A DNA stretch of 64,000 bases from a phage. How positions within the stretch are numbered: the stretch's first letter is position 1; each line of letters starts with the position of its first letter. The notes below the pieces were generated by a model, which was not told where the DNA came from, did not search any database, and worked only from the letters and a program-made list of their open reading frames with translations. Of this stretch, positions 4,610 through 35,006 are shown in pieces. Location: the sequence record OR896157.1; one strand, 5' to 3'. Both the position numbers and the translations under genes were made by a program.

Positions 4610-6178
4610 ATGAAATTTGACGTCTTAAGTTTGTTCGCGCCGTGGGCCAAAGTCGACGAACAGGAATACGACCAGCAGCTAAATAATAATTTAGAGTCTA
4701 TCACGGCCCCTAAATTTGATGACGGCGCGACAGAGATTGAATCGGAACGTGGAGACATTGCAGGCGCTGGATTATTCCAGAGAATGTACGGTCAAAATGA
4801 ACCGGGAATGAAAAACACCAGGGAGCTTATCGATACTTACCGTCAGTTAATGAATAACTACGAAGTAGATAACGCTGTCCAAGAAATCGTCTTAGATGCA
4901 ATTGTATACGAAGATGATCATCCAGTTGTTTCATTGGATTTAGATAACACTGATTTTAGCCAGGCGATTAAAGACCGTTTACAAGAAGAATTTAACGAAG
5001 TTCTTACTTGTCTGAATTTTGAAAGAAAGGGTCTTGACCATTTCCGTCGCTGGTATGTCGATTCTCGTATCTTCTTCCATAAAATTATTAACCCTAAAAA
5101 ACCGAAAGAAGGTATTCAAGAGCTTCGTCGTTTAGACCCTCGCAATATTCAGTTCGTTCGTGAAGTTATCACTGACACTGAAGCGGGCGTGAAAATTGTT
5201 AAAGGCTACAAAGAATATTTCGTTTATAACACCGGTCACGAGTCTTATCAATGTGACGGTCGAATTTACGACGCTGGAACGAAAATTAAAATTCCAAAGG
5301 CTGCAGTTGTTTATGCACACTCTGGATTAGTTGATTGTTCAGGAAGAAACATCATCGGTTATTTGCACCGAGCTGTTAAACCTGCTAACCAGCTTAAACT
5401 GCTTGAAGACGCAATGGTGATTTATCGTATTACACGTGCGCCAGACCGTCGAGTATTTTACATTGACACAGGGAACATGCCTTCCCGTAAAGCTGCTGCT
5501 CATATGCAACACATCATGAACACCATGAAAAACCGTGTGGTATATGATGCGTCTACTGGTAAAATTAAAAACCAGCAGCACAATATGTCAATGACAGAAG
5601 ATTATTGGTTACAGCGCCGCGATGGTAAAGCTGTTACTGAAATTGATAATATGCCTGGTGCTTCAGGCATGAACGAAATGGACGATGTCCGTTGGTTCAA
5701 GAACAACCTTTACCAAGCATTACGTGTTCCACTGTCTCGTATCCCGAATGACCAACAAAGTGGAGTTCAGTTTGATGCTGGAACTGGAATTACACGTGAC
5801 GAGTTACAATTTGCTAAATTCATTCGTGAACTGCAGCATAAGTTTGAAGAAATTTTCCTCGACCCTCTTAAAACAAACCTTATTTTGAAAGGCGTAATGA
5901 GCGAAGATGATTGGAAAGATGAAATAAATAACATTAAGATAGTATTTCATCGTGACAGTTACTTCACTGAACTTAAAGATGCTGAAGTCACTGAACGCAG
6001 ATTCAATATGCTTCAAATGGCCGAACCGTTTATCGGTAAGTATATTTCTCATCAGACTGCAATGAAGACTATTCTTCAAATGACTGATGAACAAATTGAC
6101 CAAGAGGCTAAGCAAATTGAGCTAGAGTCTAAAGAGGCTCGTTTCCAAGACCCAGACCAAGAACAAGAGGATTTCTAA
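4610..6178 (+). CDS. 20: portal vertex protein gp20
   Basis: 522 aa from first ATG (track start 4598 is TTG); GGAG Shine-Dalgarno 6 nt upstream; T4 gp20 is 524 aa; synteny 19-20-67. Confidence 0.95.
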
Positions 6179-26255: not shown

Positions 26256-28391
26256 TTAAAGAACGAACTTCTCTGGAGTGTCTTCAACATCAATCATTGA
26301 AGCCAGCAGAGCAAGAATCTTGTTACTTTCCGACGTCTTTGTGGACTTCACAAATCCTTCAAAATCAAATGGACCTGATTCAGGCTGAGGTTCGTCACTG
26401 TATTCTACTACTTCACCAGTTTCCATCAGAACATCACCGTCATAAACAACAGCTTCGTCTAATTGGTCAGCAGTCATTACTTCGCCTTGGATGAATTTCT
26501 GATTGTCATGCACGAGACCATCACTATAAGAAGCATCTACAATGTTGTTGACTTTCAGCATGGTACCACGAGGCAGAATAACTTCCATTTCACCTGACAT
26601 ATTACTTAAGTCGCCAGGATAAACCACGTTAACTTTCTCGCCGCCAGTAATAGCCCAACCAATCATGACTCTTGTGCTTTCAGCTTGCTGAACATCTTTA
26701 GCTGCATGAACCTCATCAGTAAGACCTAATTCAGCATAAGTCATAGAAGCTAACTTGACAGTTTCTGCACTGTTATCTGGCTGATTCAATACTGCACGAG
26801 TATTATCAGAAGCCATTGCAACCGCTTGGTTACCTTTCCAACCGCCAAAGATAATTGGAGATAAAGATGTTGAAACATAGTTTCTGAAATAGAATACTCT
26901 GTTCTTAACCATAGCTTCAAAAATTGGTTTACGAACTGACTGTGAACGCCATAAGGTAAGTCCTTCTGGAATTCTGTCGCCGCGTTTAAATGCATCGTCC
27001 AAATTTTTGATAGCAGTAGTAACTTCTTTATAAGACAGTGTATCGTAATTGTCAGCTCTATAACGACCTAAAAGCATATTGTTGATGTCTGAATAACCGG
27101 AACCAACATACTCTTTAATGCCACGTTTTTCTGCATTTGTATATTGAAGAGGCGTACGAGTACGAGTAATATCTTCAATAGTAGCAGAAACGTTTTTAGC
27201 ATAACCTTGAAGAGCTGCTTTAATCATTTTGGTACGTTCAATGTTCCAAAGATTGTTAGCCATTTGCTCTTTATCTTTTGGCTCAAGGTATTGTGGAACT
27301 TTAGTCATGATATGTTCCATTGCTTCATGTTTACGTTCTTCTAAAGAGTCCAAAAGAGTTTGAGTATATGCCTGCATACTCTTAACAGAAGTTAATGGAG
27401 CATTGCCAATTCTTGATTCAAGTTCTTTTACGAATCTTTGTTCAAATTTCTCAGATTGGCTCAATTTAATCGTAGTCAACGATTTTAAATGGAAAATAGC
27501 ACCAGTAGCTGCTAATTGAGCAGAACGAGCTTTAGCCGCTTTAGATTCTACTGCATCCTTCAATTGCTGAGCTTCTGGAATAGGATTTGCCGTTGCGGGT
27601 TTACTGAATTCGGCAGCAGTAGCTTCGTATTTTTCAAATTCTTCTGGGTCATGAATAATGTCAGAAGTTAAAGATTGACTTGCTGCTACTTGACGACGAG
27701 ATACCTTAGCACGAGCAATAACAGATTGGTCGGTACGTTTGTCGTTCTCTTGAGCAATAGTAGCTGCTAACGCTTCTGATTTAGAAACCTGTTTACCTGA
27801 CTTATTGTTGATGTAAACATCGCCAACATCAGTATCAACCTTGGTGAACTCTTCTGTTGATATCTCTGGGATGCCAGGGACGGTTGAGAGGTCAACATTC
27901 TTACGATGAATAAGAACATACACGTACTTCTTATCGTAATCATAGAGTTCTTTCAGGATAACAAAACGACCGCCCAAACGACTCATCACCAAACGGTTGA
28001 TAATCATCTGAACTGCTCGAGCTTGTCCACCCATTTTGCTTTTAGCAATACGGAACATAACTGCATCCATTTTGTATTTCTTCACAGTTTGAGATACTAA
28101 GTCAAACATGGTAGAAATAACACCCAATGGATTACCACCAAGATTTTTCAGCTTAACCAAAGTACCTTTTTCAGATACACCAAGCACAATAGCATGCATC
28201 ATTTTATCGCCAGGTTTAACGTTCTTGTTAACGTCGCCACCGCCGGTGTAAGAACACATACGAAGAGCTACTGAACCTTCTGGAGCAGCAATTGCAAAAA
28301 TCTGTGGAATTTTAGTTTTCGGATAAAGATTAGTGACCGGAAGCATTTCTGAATCCGCGTCAAAAATCTCATTTAATTGAAATTCGGTCAT
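26256..28391 (-). CDS. alt: Alt, ADP-ribosyltransferase
   Basis: 711 aa from ATG at 28391; N-terminal half closely matches T4 Alt as recalled (...LPVTNLYPK.KIPQIF..., LKELYDYDKKYVYVLIHRKNV). Confidence 0.92.
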   Translation of the reverse strand: MTEFQLNEIFDADSEMLPVTNLYPKTKIPQIFAIAAPEGSVALRMCSYTGGGDVNKNVKPGDKMMHAIVLGVSEKGTLVKLKNLGGNPLGVISTMFDLVSQTVKKYKMDAVMFRIAKSKMGGQARAVQMIINRLVMSRLGGRFVILKELYDYDKKYVYVLIHRKNVDLSTVPGIPEISTEEFTKVDTDVGDVYINNKSGKQVSKSEALAATIAQENDKRTDQSVIARAKVSRRQVAASQSLTSDIIHDPEEFEKYEATAAEFSKPATANPIPEAQQLKDAVESKAAKARSAQLAATGAIFHLKSLTTIKLSQSEKFEQRFVKELESRIGNAPLTSVKSMQAYTQTLLDSLEERKHEAMEHIMTKVPQYLEPKDKEQMANNLWNIERTKMIKAALQGYAKNVSATIEDITRTRTPLQYTNAEKRGIKEYVGSGYSDINNMLLGRYRADNYDTLSYKEVTTAIKNLDDAFKRGDRIPEGLTLWRSQSVRKPIFEAMVKNRVFYFRNYVSTSLSPIIFGGWKGNQAVAMASDNTRAVLNQPDNSAETVKLASMTYAELGLTDEVHAAKDVQQAESTRVMIGWAITGGEKVNVVYPGDLSNMSGEMEVILPRGTMLKVNNIVDASYSDGLVHDNQKFIQGEVMTADQLDEAVVYDGDVLMETGEVVEYSDEPQPESGPFDFEGFVKSTKTSESNKILALLASMIDVEDTPEKFVL

Positions 28392-28431
28392 TATGAGTCC
28401 TCTATTGTTTCTTATATTTATAGACAATTAA

Positions 28432-28445
28432 AGCCCCGAAGGGCT
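28432..28445 (-). terminator. C(UUCG)G hairpin between gene 30 operon and alt
   Basis: Plus AGCCC-CGAA-GGGCT, UUCG loop in minus-strand RNA. Confidence 0.4.
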
Positions 28446-28663
28446 TAGACTGCAATAATATTCCTGAAGATTTCAACTTTTCCACCGCCACGAGTAGCAA
28501 TGACCTCGTGTTTGTTGATTCCTGAAACTCGACCATCTGTAAATGATTCTACTTCACCTTGTGGGCGGAATGGTAATTCGACCAAGCTCTGTGTTACATT
28601 AGCGGCTCGTCCTGAGCCTTCACCTGGGTGAGCAATTGTGATAATCTCTAAATAGAATTTCAT
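28445..28663 (-). CDS. hypothetical protein
   Basis: 72 aa; start overlaps the ligase stop. Confidence 0.5.
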   Translation of the reverse strand: MKFYLEIITIAHPGEGSGRAANVTQSLVELPFRPQGEVESFTDGRVSGINKHEVIATRGGGKVEIFRNIIAV

Positions 28664-30105
28664 AGACCAGTAACCTCATGGAAATCGCCCCAGATATCAG
28701 CAAACGTATTTGCTACATCTTTGTCACGACGCATTTTAATTGCAATAGGCAAGAACAGTTTGACATAATCTGTCCGGCCTTCAGCAGCTAACCAACCATT
28801 ACATTCGGATTCAAGAATACCACCGATGTATTCATTTTTATTCAGCCAAATACGAGTACGGTCTAACTCGTGCCAATCTGAAATTTTGTCTTTAAGACCT
28901 GAACCAGCTTTAACTTTAATCAGACCACATTCTGATTCAAGATAAAAACCACCGGCTTTGCCTGGTTGTTTACTATGCTCATATATATCAACAATGCGAA
29001 GGTCAATCGTAATAACTTCTTTGAACTTATAAAGGTTTTTAGAACGAGTGTTTTCCCAGAAAGCACCAATGTTCTTCAGGATAATACCTTCAAGGCCTTC
29101 ATCAACATATTTGCGATAAATGACCTTGGCTTCATCAAGATTATGAACGATGTGGTTCTCAATCAGAATCATCTGAGAGTAACCTTTAACCATCAGTTCT
29201 AATGCACGGAAGCGAACATCATACGCAAATCCAGATTCTTTACCTTCGGAATAAACAACATCCAACGGAACGTAATCCCATACCTGGAATTTCATACCAG
29301 CAGCTTCTTTAGCTGAGATAGTTCCTTTCAGAGATTTATTGGCCAACCCGTTTGACATTGTACGGGATTCTTCTTTGAATTCCTTAGCTTCACTTAACTC
29401 AGGTAAATCGCCAAAGATATCGTCCAACGGACCAGCAGGTTCAACGATAGCATGATAAACGAGTTCACCGTCAATCATTACACCGCCAGGATGGCGTTCA
29501 CGAGCTTCTTTAGTCATTTCGATGAGCTGTTGTTTCAGCAAATCTAAACCAAGATACTCGTTACCAGCACGAGACAGAATTTTTACATCGTCTAATTCAT
29601 CACCACGGATTTCAGCAAATGCTCGTGCGCCATCAGCCTTCAGCTGCGCAAATGCAGGGAACTTAATGTTCTTTTTAATGCCTTTTTCATCGTAAGATGA
29701 AGCAAGCATTTGAGGTTGTTCAGGAATTAGATTTTTCCATACTTTATTCGCAATACTACGGGATGCGCCACAGCGCAAATCACGAAGCAGAACTTTCTTA
29801 ATAACTTCTGCATCCGCATCAGATGTTTGAGATAAAGCAATTTCAAGTTTTTCCTTTGCGGCATTACCGGTCACAACTCGCTTAGCTAATTTTTCTTCTA
29901 GCAAATAAAGCATGTCTTCAAGAGTAAGATGAATATCACCTTTAGGTCTCGTATCCCACTTCTTGATGTAATACTGGAGCTTACCATCATAAGTCATTCT
30001 GAATACTCGCTTCAAAAGCTCATTATCTTTATGACGACGAATGATAGCTTCTTTTTCTTTTGTAGAGCCAATTGAAGCAATTTCATTGATAATATCTAAA
30101 ATCAT
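28660..30105 (-). CDS. 30: ATP-dependent DNA ligase gp30
   Basis: 481 aa from ATG at 30105; near-identical to T4 DNA ligase over long stretches as recalled (...NIKFPAFAQLKADGAR..., ...DYVKLFLPIAI...). Confidence 0.96.
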   Translation of the reverse strand: MILDIINEIASIGSTKEKEAIIRRHKDNELLKRVFRMTYDGKLQYYIKKWDTRPKGDIHLTLEDMLYLLEEKLAKRVVTGNAAKEKLEIALSQTSDADAEVIKKVLLRDLRCGASRSIANKVWKNLIPEQPQMLASSYDEKGIKKNIKFPAFAQLKADGARAFAEIRGDELDDVKILSRAGNEYLGLDLLKQQLIEMTKEARERHPGGVMIDGELVYHAIVEPAGPLDDIFGDLPELSEAKEFKEESRTMSNGLANKSLKGTISAKEAAGMKFQVWDYVPLDVVYSEGKESGFAYDVRFRALELMVKGYSQMILIENHIVHNLDEAKVIYRKYVDEGLEGIILKNIGAFWENTRSKNLYKFKEVITIDLRIVDIYEHSKQPGKAGGFYLESECGLIKVKAGSGLKDKISDWHELDRTRIWLNKNEYIGGILESECNGWLAAEGRTDYVKLFLPIAIKMRRDKDVANTFADIWGDFHEVTGL

Positions 30106-30163
30106 ATTCACCTCGTTTATTGTCCCGAGCGGGTATGACAATTATATCATACCCTTTGTAAAG

Positions 30164-30394
30164 CTATTGACCGCGATACTCACGAATGAGTTCAGCCAAA
30201 GTTCGGTGGTAAAGTACTCCACCATTTTTACGAGTAATGTAGATTGCGCCATTGAACATTGCATCAATCATTTCACGTTGCTTTTGATTATCAGCATGAA
30301 TGTTGCGCGCCTTGAAGAACTCTTCTTTGTTTGCGAAACTTTCAATACGCTTGGTTGCGTCTGTTTGAGGGAACCATTCAATTACGTTAATCAT
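30164..30394 (-). CDS. hypothetical protein
   Basis: 76 aa; start overlaps stop of the HAD-like gene (ATGA). Confidence 0.55.
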   Translation of the reverse strand: MINVIEWFPQTDATKRIESFANKEEFFKARNIHADNQKQREMIDAMFNGAIYITRKNGGVLYHRTLAELIREYRGQ

Positions 30395-31254
30395 ACTTTA
30401 CCTATAGTAGTTTTAGCTGTAGGCTGACGATTCAGATATTCGATACCTGTCCCGATTCCAAAGTTTGGACGATGCACAGGAAGATTTCCTGGATGCTCAT
30501 ACCACGGCTTATAATCAGAAGGACCTGGATTTACCCATTTCTTTGGAAATTCTGGAAACTTATCAAATGGCCAATTCGGAGTAGTCTTTTCAACCTTTTT
30601 GAATAAGTCGCTCAGCTTATCACCAAGGCTTTCCTGGAATTCGCGCTGATTCATCAGACGCTGAACATGTTCCCAGTTATGCACCTTTTCTCCATATTTA
30701 GAGGAGGTGTCTCGCTGACCACGAGGCATAAACATGCAATTGACTTCGCCGCCAAAGACTTCATAAGCTGAATCTACGTGATGAGGAAGGTCATCAATAT
30801 AAGCAACAACTCTGTCGCCATATTTTTCTTTTATTTTCTCGAAGAGCTTGGTTTTTGGCTCAGAGTGGTCGCAGATGAAAGTTTCAAGAAAAGCACCTGG
30901 GAACAAAGCGTTCAAGTTGAATTGACGATTCAGTTTAGCATCAACAGAAGTACCAAGCGCAGTAACCGCAACGAAGTCATACTTATCTTTCAGAGCATTG
31001 ACAACTTTCAGAGCATCGTCGTATGCTGCCAGATAGCGAATGAAATCTGAGCAATTATATTTGACCATCAGCTGTTGAGCAAATTCTTCGTCTACACCAA
31101 ACAGATCTTTTGGCGCAACGAATTGGTCATCAATAATCATTTCAAGAATGTGGTGAACAGGCAGATTGTACTTCTGAGCGAAGTAAGGCAAGCCTGATTG
31201 CCACTTTACTAATACACCGTCTACATCAGTAGAGATAATTGGTTTATTTGACAT
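30391..31254 (-). CDS. HAD-superfamily phosphatase-like protein with about 90-aa C-terminal extension
   Basis: 287 aa; HAD motif I DVDGVL near N-terminus, Thr in VAVTALGT, DD in AYIDDLPHH. Confidence 0.65.
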   Translation of the reverse strand: MSNKPIISTDVDGVLVKWQSGLPYFAQKYNLPVHHILEMIIDDQFVAPKDLFGVDEEFAQQLMVKYNCSDFIRYLAAYDDALKVVNALKDKYDFVAVTALGTSVDAKLNRQFNLNALFPGAFLETFICDHSEPKTKLFEKIKEKYGDRVVAYIDDLPHHVDSAYEVFGGEVNCMFMPRGQRDTSSKYGEKVHNWEHVQRLMNQREFQESLGDKLSDLFKKVEKTTPNWPFDKFPEFPKKWVNPGPSDYKPWYEHPGNLPVHRPNFGIGTGIEYLNRQPTAKTTIGKV

Positions 31255-31420
31255 TTTTAGCCTTCATTTTAGCAATCATGTAAGCCGCGATACAAGATTT
31301 ACCCGGCAGTGATGGTTGTCCAACTCCACTTAATAGAGTAGTTAACTCTCCTACTTTAATACCGCCTTGATTTAAGCGTTTTAAAACATCAAGACCTTTC
31401 ATATCATATTTGACTTGCAT
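31244..31420 (-). CDS. unannotated small ORF (58 aa)
   Basis: ATG-initiated frame MQVKYDMKGLDVLKRL... below the 60-aa track cutoff; ends 11 nt inside the HAD-like gene. Confidence 0.35.
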   Translation of the reverse strand: MQVKYDMKGLDVLKRLNQGGIKVGELTTLLSGVGQPSLPGKSCIAAYMIAKMKAKNVK

Positions 31421-31567
31421 AACATTTTCTCAAAGGTTGTGATACTGTTAGCTGGGCCACTTAGAGTTATCTCTATGAACCCAGGCTGACTTGAAGGACC
31501 AATTCTGTATATACATATGGCTAATGTTCTTGCGTATTCCAGAAGGTCCTTCGTTAACCCTCTTACA

Positions 31568-31771
31568 TTAAACTGTTTCATAAACTTCGTCATTAGCAGC
31601 TTTAAGAGGCTCGATTTCACATTCTAAACGAATATCAGTATTCCCGTCAACCCATTGTACTTCATAAGCAGGTTGAACACCATATTCTGGAATTGATTCA
31701 GCAGTATCACAGATGACTCCCGGAATACCGCCTTTGCGCAGCTGTACTGGTTGTAAAATGTGGTATTTCAT
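31568..31771 (-). CDS. hypothetical protein
   Basis: 67 aa; start forms ATGA overlap with the upstream 55-aa ORF. Confidence 0.5.
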   Translation of the reverse strand: MKYHILQPVQLRKGGIPGVICDTAESIPEYGVQPAYEVQWVDGNTDIRLECEIEPLKAANDEVYETV

Positions 31772-31935
31772 TCTGCCACCGCATAAGTTAGAATTTGATG
31801 AAAGAAATCAGGGCATTCAAGCTGATACTTGACTTCTGTATCAGAGACAGTTACGCCCAGCACTTCAATCATCGGATTGCTCAACATGCCGCGTTCAAAT
31901 TCAGGTGCTTTATTAAGAGGAATAGTGATAATCAT
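31768..31935 (-). CDS. unannotated small ORF (55 aa)
   Basis: Frame MIITIPLNKAPEFERG... coupled at both ends: TAATG with the upstream gene and ATGA with the downstream gene. Confidence 0.5.
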   Translation of the reverse strand: MIITIPLNKAPEFERGMLSNPMIEVLGVTVSDTEVKYQLECPDFFHQILTYAVAE

Positions 31936-32405
31936 TACAGAGTCTCCAATACAGTTTTAACTTTAGCTTCAGCAACTTGTTTAACAACCAGAACACGAAC
32001 ACCTTCAACTGCATTACGAATTTGCTTTTGAGCTGCTTGGTTGGCTTCCTCTTCAGTGTAAGGACCAACGCAGAAAGGCTGTTGAGAGCGATTAGTTGGA
32101 ATAGTCATCATCCAGAAATCTTTTGCATCAGACTCTGTTGGTTTAACTTCTTCAAGGTACTTGTGAACATCAGTAGCCAAGAAGAAGCACCATACTATAT
32201 TGAATACACCAACATTAGCATGATGAAGTTTACCATCAACATCGATTGCAATGATATTTCCACCACTATCAACCTTTTTGACTGTGAATGGAGTTAGTCC
32301 ATTATTCAACAGCTTAAGAAGTTCTTCAGAATAAGAACTTCCGCGATTTTTAAGACTACCAATACCAGTTTCAGTCAACTTAAACTCTTTATCAACAATA
32401 CACAT
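31935..32405 (-). CDS. hypothetical protein
   Basis: 156 aa from ATG with GAGGAAA Shine-Dalgarno (track ORF runs upstream through a hairpin). Confidence 0.6.
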   Translation of the reverse strand: MCIVDKEFKLTETGIGSLKNRGSSYSEELLKLLNNGLTPFTVKKVDSGGNIIAIDVDGKLHHANVGVFNIVWCFFLATDVHKYLEEVKPTESDAKDFWMMTIPTNRSQQPFCVGPYTEEEANQAAQKQIRNAVEGVRVLVVKQVAEAKVKTVLETL

Positions 32406-32423
32406 AACTATTTCCTCAAGTAG

Positions 32424-32439
32424 AGGGCCCGAAGGCCCT
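32424..32439 (-). terminator. C(UUCG)G hairpin (intercistronic)
   Basis: Plus AGGGCC-CGAA-GGCCCT; no U-run. Confidence 0.4.
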
Positions 32440-32443
32440 AAAT

Positions 32444-32806
32444 TTAGATTACGAATTCGTTTGAAACGATATCCCAAATTGCTTCACGCTGTTCTTCAGT
32501 TGTTTTCTGACCAAGAACGTGACGCAGATAAAGTTTAACCAGAAGTTTGCGATTGTCTCCGTTCCAAGAAGGATGAGTTCCTAAATCGCGTTTACGGTGG
32601 TCATCATGAAAACCAACAGAAATGACTGAACCTTTGAGTTTAACATCTAAAGTTGGGCCATTTTCAAAACTGATGAAGACGTAGTTATCTTCCCAGTACA
32701 TATCGATTTGAGCAACTGTGCCATTTTTATGTTCCCAGAGTAAAGTTGTTGAAACGTCCCATGCATTATCTTGAACGTATTTCTTTTTGAAGTTAGTGTA
32801 ATCCAT
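32444..32806 (-). CDS. hypothetical protein
   Basis: 120 aa from ATG with GGAG Shine-Dalgarno; early-promoter-like motif upstream. Confidence 0.6.
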   Translation of the reverse strand: MDYTNFKKKYVQDNAWDVSTTLLWEHKNGTVAQIDMYWEDNYVFISFENGPTLDVKLKGSVISVGFHDDHRKRDLGTHPSWNGDNRKLLVKLYLRHVLGQKTTEEQREAIWDIVSNEFVI

Positions 32807-32844
32807 TTTGTTCTCCGTTGTATCTGTTTGTTTATTGAGTTTAT

Positions 32845-32874
32845 ATACTAACACATACAACGGAGGATGTAAAC
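32845..32874 (-). promoter_or_regulatory. early-promoter-like motif TTTACA-N17-TAGTAT (copy 2)
   Basis: Same 45-nt motif family as at 26224. Confidence 0.5.
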
Positions 32875-32877
32875 GGT

Positions 32878-33405
32878 TTAGTTCACTTCTGTGAAAATTG
32901 TTTGAGGAACGTACTCGGTTTTGGCAGTTGCAATCATCTTCATAATGATAGCTTTACCTTCAATGTTTTTACGCAAGAACGACTTGCACGCATCATGAGC
33001 TTCTTCAGATGTCATAAGAATAGCTATGGAACGCTCGTCCCCTACTTGGTCCAGATTCAACCAAACGTTTTCTTTCTTAGTCTGGCCTAAAGCTACATAC
33101 ATCACTTCAACGGTCTTTTCTTCAACCTCAACCTCAACCAGGAAATTTCTGACTTCAGTGCCGGTGAACCAAGGACATGAATCACCATTCATACCGTCAA
33201 TTTCAGCACCTTTTGGGCTTATCCAGCTTTCATTTTCAAATCGGATAAGACCTACAGAACCACTTGCAATAGCTTCGCCTTTTGCAATGTAAAAAGACTT
33301 ATCACCGATATACTCAGCAATAAGCTGATTCACTCTCTGATTACAGCCTTCGGTGGATTTTAAAAAGCCTTCTTTTTCTAAGCGGTACAGAACATCACTT
33401 TTCAT
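32878..33405 (-). CDS. hypothetical protein
   Basis: 175 aa; contains CPWFTGTEV segment shared at DNA level with the neighbouring ORF. Confidence 0.6.
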   Translation of the reverse strand: MKSDVLYRLEKEGFLKSTEGCNQRVNQLIAEYIGDKSFYIAKGEAIASGSVGLIRFENESWISPKGAEIDGMNGDSCPWFTGTEVRNFLVEVEVEEKTVEVMYVALGQTKKENVWLNLDQVGDERSIAILMTSEEAHDACKSFLRKNIEGKAIIMKMIATAKTEYVPQTIFTEVN

Positions 33406-33417
33406 AGTTTCCTCATA

Positions 33418-33431
33418 AGGCCCGAAGGCCT
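33418..33431 (-). terminator. C(UUCG)G hairpin (intercistronic)
   Basis: Plus AGGCC-CGAA-GGCCT. Confidence 0.4.
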
Positions 33432-33804
33432 AGAACATTTTACGTTCGGTCCAGTTATCAAGATTAACTGTACCAGTTTTCTTCATTTTTTCAATCAAGT
33501 TATCTGCACGAGTGCGTCCATTTTCATACCACACTACATCTTCAGAATAACCATCTTCGTCTTCATAAGTTTCAGAACGAATATGACCATGAATGCTTGT
33601 TTTCAAAACGTATTCAGTGCCGGTGAACCAATTAGTCAGAATAATGTACCAGCAGAAATCAGTAGATGGACCTTCAGGAGTCATGCAGTGAACTACATCT
33701 CCTTGCCACGAAGACAGATGCCACATTGGCTCTTCTACTTCGATTGCTTTGTATCCATCGTGGTCTTTCGTTTTGATAGTAGCATTCAGATTAATTGTGT
33801 TCAT
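33430..33804 (-). CDS. hypothetical protein
   Basis: 124 aa from ATG with GGAG Shine-Dalgarno; contains NWFTGTEYV. Confidence 0.6.
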   Translation of the reverse strand: MNTINLNATIKTKDHDGYKAIEVEEPMWHLSSWQGDVVHCMTPEGPSTDFCWYIILTNWFTGTEYVLKTSIHGHIRSETYEDEDGYSEDVVWYENGRTRADNLIEKMKKTGTVNLDNWTERKMF

Positions 33805-33840
33805 TTTATTCTCCGTTACCATATTGGTTATTGAGATTCT

Positions 33841-33869
33841 ATCATAACACAACTTTTGGCAGATGTAAA
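33841..33869 (-). promoter_or_regulatory. early-promoter-like motif TTTACA-N17-TATGAT (copy 3)
   Basis: Same motif family. Confidence 0.5.
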
Positions 33870-33872
33870 CGG

Positions 33873-34076
33873 TTAGAGTTTTTCGCAACTATGGTATTCA
33901 GCATCTGCCCAAATGCCGAATGCTGGCAATGATTCTAGCATTGAGTTTCCAACTTCAATTGGGTCTTCCCACGGCCAAAGTGTAGCAATCTTTTCATAGA
34001 AAAAGACTGAATCCATATGTGAATATTCTGCAGGGTATTCTGATATAACTTTGAAAATAAATTTACGTTTAAACAT
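33873..34076 (-). CDS. hypothetical protein
   Basis: 67 aa from ATG with AGAGG Shine-Dalgarno (track start is TTG). Confidence 0.5.
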   Translation of the reverse strand: MFKRKFIFKVISEYPAEYSHMDSVFFYEKIATLWPWEDPIEVGNSMLESLPAFGIWADAEYHSCEKL

Positions 34077-34098
34077 ATGAACCTCTGGATGCAAAAAA

Positions 34099-34118
34099 GG
34101 GACTCCCGAAGGAGTCCC
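34099..34118 (-). terminator. intrinsic terminator with C(UUCG)G loop
   Basis: Plus GGGACTCC-CGAA-GGAGTCCC; minus-strand RNA has the hairpin followed by UUUUUU. Confidence 0.7.
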
Positions 34119-34129
34119 GAACTTATGCT

Positions 34130-34309
34130 TTATGCTTTCTTACGTGGATTACCAAATGCAGCATCATGAGCAATAACTTTGCGAGCGCGAGATGCTAGCT
34201 GGTCAGCCAATGGATTAATACGAGAGTTAGACCCACGCTTGTAGCCAGCGCGTTTAGAGGTACCAACAACTTCTTTTACTGCAGTTTTTGCTTTAGCTTG
34301 TTTAGCCAT
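34130..34309 (-). CDS. small highly basic protein (59 aa)
   Basis: MAKQAKAKTAVKEVVGTSKRAGYKRG...NPRKKA, about one third K/R; followed by a canonical terminator. Confidence 0.5.
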   Translation of the reverse strand: MAKQAKAKTAVKEVVGTSKRAGYKRGSNSRINPLADQLASRARKVIAHDAAFGNPRKKA

Positions 34310-34626
34310 TTTTAGTCTTCCATTTTGGAGAAATACATGGGAGCACGTTCTTCCGAGTTTCAACTTCTTTCGACAGTTCTTTCGGTTGTAGCTCCCGCAA
34401 GCCCTCAAAGGGTACTTTGTGAGTTTTGTATATTTAACGTTCCGGTTCTCACAACCTTAACTTCATACGCTCTTATCTGTTGCACACCGTTAGCTTAAAG
34501 GTTCCGGGTCCGATTTCTCGAGGATAAGATATACACTGATGGATGCATAGGCCTTGAGGCGTACTCCCGATTGGCCATCACCTCGGGGTAGCATGCACTT
34601 GCCGCGTAACTTGCCTTACAGCAACA
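34310..34626 (-). other. ORF-free G+C-elevated segment; candidate structured RNA or gene remnant
   Basis: About 317 nt with no ORF of 60 aa or more in any frame in an otherwise tightly packed genome; contains GGGAGC...GCUCCC long-range complement. Confidence 0.3.
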
Positions 34627-34875
34627 TTACTTCAGAGTCACTACGAAATGACGAACCGCTTTACGAGCTGCTGAACACAGAGGTTTAGCAAACTTCAGCT
34701 CATCTTTCAGAGCAAGTACATCGCGGAGGTCTGCCTGAACAGGATTCAGATGTTTGAAACCTTTCAGAACTTCCAGTGCTTCGGCGTAAACGTCGATTGA
34801 TGCACCGTAGTTATCGTGACCTGCGTTCCAGGAGTTGCGCTGCAGATGCAGAGCGTGTTCAAGTTGTTTGTTCAT
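34627..34875 (-). CDS. rIII: rIII lysis-inhibition accessory protein (probable)
   Basis: 82 aa from internal ATG, same length as T4 rIII; immediately downstream of gene 31 as in T4. Confidence 0.7.
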   Translation of the reverse strand: MNKQLEHALHLQRNSWNAGHDNYGASIDVYAEALEVLKGFKHLNPVQADLRDVLALKDELKFAKPLCSAARKAVRHFVVTLK

Positions 34876-35006
34876 TGACATTATGTCATTCCTCAATACG
34901 AGGTTAATAAAAGGTAGACGGTACCAGAATTTAAGCTGCGCGTCTACCACCTTGTAATTTCTCCGGTTAACTTTTGTCCGGCAGCCAAATTACAATAATA
35001 TTTATA

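Follow-up and report, generated by a model that had tools for sequence, protein, structure and literature searches.

Introduction

The hyperplastic regions of T4-type phages have been described by a cassette model of promoter-early stem-loops, PeSL (Arbiol et al. 2010, Comeau et al. 2014; PMC2839356, PMC4122927). In the T4 block between gene 30 (DNA ligase) and rIII, 30.3 is AdfN, a NADAR enzyme that reverses the ADP-ribosylation by DarT1 and counters DarTG1 (bioRxiv 10.1101/2024.07.11.602962), and 30.5 binds the host polyphosphate kinase Ppk and is one of the triggers of bNACHT11 (bioRxiv 10.1101/2024.12.17.629029), while the RIII protein has been published to bind ribosomal protein S1 and to inhibit the activation of the RegB RNase. 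The stretch considered here, positions 30,164 to 34,626 of 64,000 nucleotides (nt) of phage DNA from the sequence record OR896157.1 (the whole of which is called the window), had been singled out in an earlier note, made from the sequence alone, as an island of small open reading frames (ORFs). In the region we have the T4 gene 30–rIII hyperplastic block, made up of small non-essential early genes, in its Karamvirus (PG7-type) form. Its protein island, although real, is an ordinary one that the databases already contain, and no new protein system was detected in it. The spacer between rIII and 30.9, however, holds two structured RNA elements, the 140-nt element R and a 58-nt hairpin, which are the sole part of the region not described in the sources searched, and which most likely act in cis on the rIII–30.9 transcript.

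Compared with T4 30.1–30.9, the flanks and the orientation are alike, and both the 30.9 terminator and the stem-loop that follows 30.7 are kept. However, the window lacks 30.3 (AdfN), 30.3', 30.6 and, in its usual place, 30.4, has the ORFs C, E, F, H and J instead, and carries R in the rIII–30.9 spacer, where T4 has none. In the GenBank comparison, positions 30100–34700 were 98.5% identical over the full length to the Enterobacter phages vB_VIPECLUMC02 and EnA02, 98.2% identical to PG7 and about 93% to CC31, all of them of the genus Karamvirus, Tevenvirinae. The synteny of ligase, 30.x, rIII, 31, 31.1 and cd follows the T4 order on the same strand, which bears out the earlier placing of the stretch at the T4 30.x position. 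The content of guanine and cytosine (GC) is about 0.40 in the region and 0.45–0.47 across 34200–34800.

RNA elements of the rIII–30.9 spacer

The stretch of 317 nt at 34310–34626, the spacer between rIII and 30.9, is indeed ORF-free, as the earlier note had it, yet it contains the following structured RNA elements:

34467..34606, minus strand: RNA element R, 140 nt, multi-helix, GC 0.53, 42 base pairs of which 15 covary
34339..34396, minus strand: hairpin RNA of three stacked helices with a GAAA loop and conserved purine-rich internal loops

The 317-nt stretch is matched in part by 804 phage records, 189 of which cover at least 80% of it. The spacer is a mosaic of RNA structure modules, in which the structures of R and of the 58-nt hairpin are backed by compensatory changes. 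Among the Karamviruses it measures 121, 148, 203, 262 or 317 nt, with differing sets of short modules, and R may stand either upstream or downstream of one of these modules, depending on the phage. About 30 nt are left between the hairpin and the start codon of 30.9. Two more short conserved modules were observed at 34396–34466 and in the homologous spacers, again in an order that differs between phages, namely a small CCC-loop-GGG hairpin followed by CUUGCG, and a hairpin followed by CGUUAAAUAUCCAAAAC, the stem of which has compensatory changes between T4 and CC31.

Element R was first seen by aligning the spacers from seven phages, and its structure was derived with RNAalifold from 19 distinct copies. 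It is a sharply bounded block of about 140 nt with its own closing helix. In the 42 predicted pairs, 98.5% of the cells were paired, against 26–41% with slid partners; 15 pairs showed compensatory changes, against at most 2 with slid partners, and the observed values were reached in 0 of 500 shuffles. The G-U pairs are compatible solely with the gene strand, the variable columns amount to 49% of the paired and 28% of the unpaired ones, and the joining regions are invariant. The covariance model of R (R1) finds one copy in the window, with 171.5 bits.

The element is present in the PG7-type Karamvirus, JD18 (Jiaodavirus), EcWhh-1 (Dhakavirus), G4498 (Tequatrovirus) and Serratia 4S, and is absent from T4 and CC31 by both the spacer alignment and the covariance model of the two loci. 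All 33 loci with both flanks have R between rIII and 30.9 in one and the same orientation, 85–190 nt from the 30.9 ribosome-binding site and thus not adjacent to it. Its nucleotide identity is 85–97% where that of rIII and 30.9 is 68–77%. None of 5,426 complete E. coli genomes matched R, on which ground the reading of R as a host-RNA mimic was rejected, and the scans of metagenome and genome collections with the R core returned T4-like phage contigs only, plus one chance GC-rich match. A terminator or a Shine-Dalgarno-sequestering alternative structure that could be linked to R was not found. In vB_EcoM_G4498, two small coding sequences of 'hypothetical protein' are annotated over R (1601–1898), which are probably spurious calls on a structured RNA.

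The covariance model of the 58-nt hairpin (R2) also finds a single window copy (89.9 bits), and 8 of its 16 pairs covary among 5 distinct sequences; within Karamvirus alone there is a compensatory change between CCGA/UCGG and CUGA/UCAG. The hairpin core was found in 673 phage records, with one copy per genome and no annotation in any of them. In Karamvirus, the Moon-type phages and Jiaodavirus it is located between rIII and 30.9, and in T4 and Dhakavirus between 31 and rIII, within a different outer stem. T4 (MT984581.1) has at 4996–5053, between 31 and rIII, the 45-nt hairpin core in the outer stem GGUAGUC/GACUACC, which is unannotated in the T4-type records. The window has after gene 31, at 34913–34948, a plain hairpin GGTAGACG/CGTCTACC followed by a T-run, the stem of which resembles the T4 outer stem. 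The presence of this plain hairpin at the corresponding place suggests that an older terminator hairpin acquired the core as an insertion in its loop. One further candidate for the hairpin pattern was dismissed as a chance match.

The same module was met in one group I intron. In the nrdA intron of the uncultured T4-like contig IMGVR_UViG_3300033075_000047 (577–833; RF00028, 58.1 bits), the P6 extension is the hairpin module, with a 45-nt core about 85% identical and compensatory changes in three helices. No intron core surrounds the hairpin in the window or in the 673 phage records, where it is a free-standing element between genes. In this contig nrdA is split after the SNLC motif and is followed by an HNH-like ORF.

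Rfam 15 gave no relevant match, either over 6 kb at E <= 1 or for the 341-nt spacer alone at E <= 10, and the chance matches to microRNA and long non-coding RNA families in the region and spacer scans were dismissed. A group I intron in the spacer was rejected as well, RF00028 detecting the nrdA intron and nothing in the window. The folding energy of the whole spacer is unremarkable (z = -0.58). The literature searches returned no description of the spacer RNAs.

Gene content of the block

Between the ligase and rIII there are 11 ORFs of 55–287 amino acids (aa), all on the minus strand, as the earlier note had counted, plus a possible twelfth (ORF X). In the minus-strand reading order they follow as rIII, 30.9, J, 30.8, H, 30.7, F, E, 30.5, (X), C, 30.2, A and ligase. 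The features are listed by coordinate:

28660..30105, minus strand: gp30 DNA ligase, flank, 481 aa, start ATG at 30105, annotated as DNA ligase in relatives
30164..30394, minus strand: ORF A, 76 aa, phrog_13133, in the 30.1 slot
30391..31254, minus strand: gp30.2, 287 aa, 50% identity to T4 30.2 over 282 aa
31244..31420, minus strand: ORF C, 58 aa, lineage-specific, phrog_23929, no T4 match
31399..31581, minus strand: ORF X, candidate twelfth ORF, 60 aa, overlapping C and 30.5, weak match to phrog_27351 (E 5e-5)
31568..31771, minus strand: gp30.5 orthologue, 67 aa, 38% identity to T4 30.5 (E 3e-13), phrog_1690
31768..31935, minus strand: ORF E, 55 aa, DUF7428, PF24204 (E 1.4e-15)
31935..32405, minus strand: ORF F, 156 aa, phrog_8920, in the T4 30.6 slot but unrelated to 30.6, weak paralogue of H at the C-terminus
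32444..32806, minus strand: gp30.7 orthologue, 120 aa, PF06919 (E 1.6e-58), 50% identity to T4 30.7
32878..33405, minus strand: ORF H, 175 aa, narrow lineage-specific family, phrog_18504, 13 close homologues
33430..33804, minus strand: gp30.8 orthologue, 124 aa, PF06019 (E 2.9e-48), 42% identity to T4 30.8
33873..34076, minus strand: ORF J, 67 aa, weakly 30.4-like, phrog_22802 and phrog_2042, T4 30.4 by blastp E 0.001
34130..34309, minus strand: gp30.9 orthologue, 59 aa, very basic, 62% identity to T4 30.9, phrog_1427
34627..34881, minus strand: rIII, flank, 84 aa, 76% identity to T4 RIII, phrog_1457

The statement that these ORFs have no placeable homologues did not hold. The same 11 ORFs are annotated in the close relatives, as hypothetical proteins, and every ORF is already in a PHROG family of the function-unknown class. 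Five of them, 30.2, 30.5, 30.7, 30.8 and 30.9, align clearly with T4 orthologues (E 1e-87 to 3e-13), and two align weakly, A with 30.1 and J with 30.4, so that the proposed alignment to the T4 30.x products accounts for a part of the island, the ORFs C, E, F and H being without a T4 counterpart in the comparison with the T4 proteins. ORF A, with weak reciprocal matches to T4 30.1 (E 0.038 and E 0.0065), is a probable distant 30.1 homologue. ORF J weakly matches T4 30.4 and its PHROG family, differs from it in location, and is absent from fGh-Ecl04 and T4. No counterpart of T4 30.3, 30.3' or 30.6 was found anywhere in the 64-kb window, and tblastn of T4 30.3, the NADAR protein AdfN and the sole anti-defence product known from the T4 block, against the whole of it gave no match. 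The binding of the host polyphosphate kinase shown for T4 30.5 may be carried over, by orthology, to the gp30.5 of the window.

The protein gp30.2 had been noted as a HAD-like phosphatase with an extra C-terminal domain; the fold is retained here, and the extension turned out to be a helix and a disordered Pro/Trp-rich tail, which T4 gp30.2 has as well. The structural model, built from a 56-sequence alignment, has a mean predicted local distance difference test score (pLDDT) of 80.9, with a confident Rossmannoid core and cap at residues about 1–190, a long helix at 194–223 and a tail with pLDDT below 50. Foldseek returned 84 PDB matches at E <= 1e-3, and the best among the matches listed belong to the HAD superfamily, in the first place 3bwv (deoxyribonucleotidase-like) and also 2jao, 6g2l and 2i7d, with cytosolic and mitochondrial 5'(3')-deoxyribonucleotidases among them. 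The residues D10, D12, T98, K134, D154 and D155, corresponding to the HAD motifs I–IV, are kept across the 56 sequences. By its predicted fold gp30.2 is, therefore, a HAD-fold, deoxyribonucleotidase-like phosphatase, which probably acts on nucleotide pools. It resembles the 5'(3')-deoxyribonucleotidases (cdN, mdN) in the Rossmannoid HAD core, the cap and the DxD, Thr, Lys and DD motifs, but the identity to them is just 14–20%, and the long helix and Pro/Trp-rich tail are added. Many gp30.2 homologues, of about 200 aa, are without the C-terminal extension.

ORF X takes up most of the 147 nt that separate C from 30.5 (31421–31567). It is intact and 95–98% conserved in seven Karamvirus relatives (all those checked), and is annotated in KaAlpha, VPA32 and PS49. 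It may be coding, overlapping both neighbours out of frame. The gap itself is very highly conserved among the Karamviruses and contains a GGACC...GGTCC inverted repeat. ORFs F and H have a C-terminal motif of about 40 aa in common (E 3e-5) and nothing else, and their homologues are confined to Karamvirus-like phages. The stem-loop and Shine-Dalgarno context upstream of F is similar to that before T4 30.6. The profile search with H yielded just six cluster representatives among 1.84 billion proteins; no fold was assigned to H because the confidence of its model is low (pLDDT 61) and its BFVD matches are solely uncharacterised T4-like proteins. The small gp30.9, with 15 Lys/Arg against 3 Asp/Glu, is the 59-aa very basic protein of the earlier note.

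Pfam gave no match for 30.9, rIII or ORF X. The homology of 30.7 and 30.8 to each other was not supported, nor had the VPA32 labels 'putative peptidase inhibitor' (F) and 'YorP' (30.5) any support in Pfam. Just past the ligase, also on the minus strand, lie a 723-aa ORF (26256–28427) and a 72-aa ORF (28445–28663), at the position where T4 has alt-type genes.

Promoters, stem-loops and cassette exchange

The regulatory features and repeats of the block are as follows:

30141..30164, minus strand: site resembling a MotA-type middle promoter of gene 30, GCTTTA and TATAAT spaced by 12 nt, which overlaps the ORF A stop
32425..32438, minus strand: GGGCC-UUCG-GGCCC hairpin after 30.7, without a T-run (sequence and repeat search)
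32800..32876, minus strand: strong hairpin containing the putative early promoter TTTACA-17-TAGTAT (32873..32845), in which the 30.7 Shine-Dalgarno sequence and AUG are paired
33154–33172, minus strand: 19-nt exact repeat, H copy, encoding WFTGTE
33419..33430, minus strand: GGCC-UUCG-GGCC hairpin after 30.8, without a T-run (sequence and repeat search)
33613–33631, minus strand: 19-nt exact repeat, 30.8 copy, encoding WFTGTE
33841..33869, minus strand: putative early promoter TTTACA-17-TATGAT before 30.8 (repeat and motif search)
34099..34118, minus strand: terminator GGGACUCC-UUCG-GGAGUCCC and U6 after 30.9, conserved in T4

The motif TTTACA-N17-TAnnAT, which had been said to precede several cassettes, is present, but in exactly two copies, at 33869..33841 before 30.8 and at 32873..32845 before 30.7. 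Both of these early promoters are inside a 51-nt cassette that is repeated 996 bp apart with 75% identity, each copy with an extended TG. The C(UUCG)G hairpins are three in number, and the couplings by stop/start overlaps are likewise as described earlier, with TAATG at F/E and ATGA at E/30.5 and 30.2/A, besides an 11-nt overlap at C/30.2. Since a T-run follows solely the hairpin after 30.9, only this one looks like a true terminator. The middle-promoter-like site of gene 30 presumably is a MotA site by the consensus in the T4 literature. Directly upstream of rIII, at 34880–34907, there is a sigma-70-like site with TTAACC, 16 nt, CATAAT and an extended TG, which agrees with the published statement that the promoter nearest to T4 rIII is an early one.

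The hairpin over the 30.7 promoter has a folding energy of -27.2 kcal/mol (z = -6.7) and pairs the 30.7 Shine-Dalgarno sequence and start codon; in T4, another, different hairpin spans the corresponding promoter. Translation that is poor from a read-through RNA and good from a promoter-proximal RNA is a pattern known for other T4 genes. As an RNA started at the 30.7 promoter is without the 5' arm of the hairpin, the read-through RNA would translate 30.7 poorly, and the promoter-started RNA would translate it well.

Transcripts would enter the block from upstream and would be renewed at the two sigma-70-type early promoters before 30.8 and 30.7, the UUCG hairpins would trim or attenuate them, with just the 30.9 one terminating, and several genes would be coupled in translation via the overlapping stop and start codons. 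The organisation is like that of the PeSL in the repeated sigma-70-type early promoters and GC-rich stem-loops between small accessory ORFs, and in the indel breakpoints between close relatives at promoter and stem-loop motifs. However, it differs from the PeSL in that the stem-loop and promoter of the window are split by an ORF (J, H) instead of making one composite motif, and in that its stems are C(UUCG)G hairpins and not GGGG...CCCC. The composite form of stem-loop and promoter is present between 30.9 and 30.8 in fGh-Ecl04 and T4, where the 30.8 early promoter comes immediately after the 30.9 terminator; J lies exactly between these two in the window, and H lies there between the 30.8 hairpin and the 30.7 promoter.

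The 19-nt segment that neighbouring ORFs were said to have in common is an exact repeat in H and 30.8, which neither CC31 nor the Moon-type phages have. Among the matches of H there was a 153-aa protein of vB_VIPECLOM01 that begins with the residues 1–64 of 30.8 and passes at WFTGTE into the C-terminal portion of H. In the DNA of this phage the 19-mer is single-copy and flanked by sequence from 30.8 at one end and from H at the other end, which amounts to a precise 459-bp deletion. The single 19-mer with hybrid flanks in a sister phage makes the repeat, therefore, a proven substrate of short-homology recombination. The in-frame 30.8::H fusion (OQ721912.1, 3080–3541) is annotated there merely as a hypothetical protein. 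The block was rightly called variable, since J, the RNA modules and the 30.8::H fusion differ among the Karamviruses, and it probably evolves by cassette exchange at the repeated promoter and stem-loop motifs, as the PeSL model has it, together with short-homology recombination.

Proposed role of the spacer RNAs and alternative explanations

Taken together, the account given here, of the block, its expression, its products, its evolution and the spacer RNAs likely acting in cis, is in our view likely to be correct. R and the 58-nt hairpin would set the expression of rIII, 30.9 and the downstream genes, either as an operator to which a protein or ligand binds or through an effect on processing or stability. 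A role in cis is favoured because both elements keep their position and orientation beside rIII despite independent insertion or rearrangement; in particular, the fixed place of R between rIII and 30.9, while its order with respect to the other modules varies, fits such a role. R is similar to the structured mRNA leaders, such as riboswitches, r-protein-type operators and processing or stability elements, in its multiple helices with invariant joins and in its location ahead of a gene, in untranslated sequence of the coding strand and in a fixed gene context. However, it differs from them in not being beside the 30.9 ribosome-binding site and in being dispensable in natural relatives.

Several observations weigh against this account. 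Relatives without the elements are viable, T4 being without R, and CC31, KaAlpha and fGh-Ecl04 without both, so that both are dispensable. Recent horizontal spread, and not selection, could be behind the high conservation of R, and in PS49 the pattern is reversed, R being less similar to the window than the flanks are. The folding energy of R is no better than that of shuffled sequences (z = 0.24), and the support for its structure consists of covariation among 19 related sequences. The promoter-like matches of the region are not above chance, 14 having been found against 12.0 +/- 3.7 expected from shuffled sequence, and promoter use, read-through and RNA ends are all deduced from the anatomy of the DNA. 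Finally, the account leaves most of the proteins without an assignable function.

A more far-reaching reading, which we put forward only tentatively, is that R, maybe with the hairpin, represents a new class of structured RNA in T-even-type phages, a sensor or operator controlling the expression of early accessory genes or host takeover. The candidate ligands of R would be a small molecule or a protein of phage or host, for which RIII, the basic gp30.9, RegB and ribosomal protein S1 come into question. The element would have been overlooked because T4 itself is without it.

That R is instead excised and acts in trans as a stable small RNA, a decoy or mimic of a host factor or defence sensor, or a ribozyme, seems unlikely. 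Its invariant joins and its variation mostly in paired columns, as in tertiary-core RNAs, its sharp boundaries with its own closing helix, and its location in an accessory, anti-defence-prone block would suit such an RNA. However, R has no promoter or terminator of its own and no similarity to E. coli genomes or Rfam families, and a position fixed beside rIII and 30.9 in every locus with both flanks would be needless for a trans-acting RNA.

Still less probable is the reading of R and the hairpin as selfish or relic modules, perhaps derived from introns, that were spread by T4-type homologous recombination with no benefit to the phage. Their presence or absence among close relatives, their varying positions relative to the other spacer modules, the hairpin core that doubles as the P6 extension of a real group I intron, the GC of R, 0.53 against about 0.40 nearby, and its discordance with the flanks in PS49 are consistent with this view. 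Both elements, however, are kept at one copy per genome, the Rfam group I model finds nothing in the window, and compensatory changes are present in every helix, also within Karamvirus, and show continuing selection for structure.

The earlier note regarded this island as the likeliest site of an undescribed system within the window, and the proteins could be read as one coherent anti-defence or host-takeover system, for example of the pairs 30.8 with H and 30.7 with F. There are two cassettes of equal layout (promoter, conserved gene, UUCG hairpin, lineage-specific gene), F and H have their C-terminal motif in common, and the T4 block includes AdfN and a bNACHT11 trigger. The host and defence interactions of T4 30.3, 30.5 and RIII make the idea of a host-interaction block reasonable, and to this extent the suggested host-takeover or anti-defence character of the genes stands, the 30.3/AdfN part of it having no counterpart here; nothing, however, joins the genes into one system. 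The gene content varies piecemeal among close relatives, T4 carries 30.7 and 30.8 without F or H, and F and H are restricted to a narrow lineage. The PADLOC defence models matched none of 10 window proteins (30.9 and ORF X left out), the NCBIfam and PDB sequence searches of the window proteins gave no matches, and a coherent multi-gene protein system was not found in the region by the PADLOC, NCBIfam, Pfam and PDB searches, so that such a system is very improbable. The protein-coding reading of the spacer, to which the GenBank hypothetical proteins over the homologous stretch (e.g., in G4498) and a 34-aa ORF of the window at 34490–34594 might point, can practically be discarded and was rejected for R, with each of the six frames interrupted by stop codons in almost every one of the 19 variants, the variation concentrated in paired columns, substitutions that are compensatory in stems and not codon-like, and no PHROG match for the 34-aa ORF.

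Significance

The protein island adds little to what is published on this accessory block, and the work on it chiefly corrects the annotation, with five T4 30.x orthologues, the HAD nucleotidase-like gp30.2 and the absence of AdfN. The natural 30.8::H fusion is an example of short repeats reshaping accessory genes. The spacer deserves more attention, since few viruses have been studied as thoroughly as the T4-like phages, and R and the hairpin have nevertheless gone unannotated in them or been mis-annotated as small ORFs, and have no Rfam family. The link of both elements to rIII, the product of which binds S1 and restrains RegB, and to the basic gp30.9 offers a testable lead to the post-transcriptional control of early phage genes.

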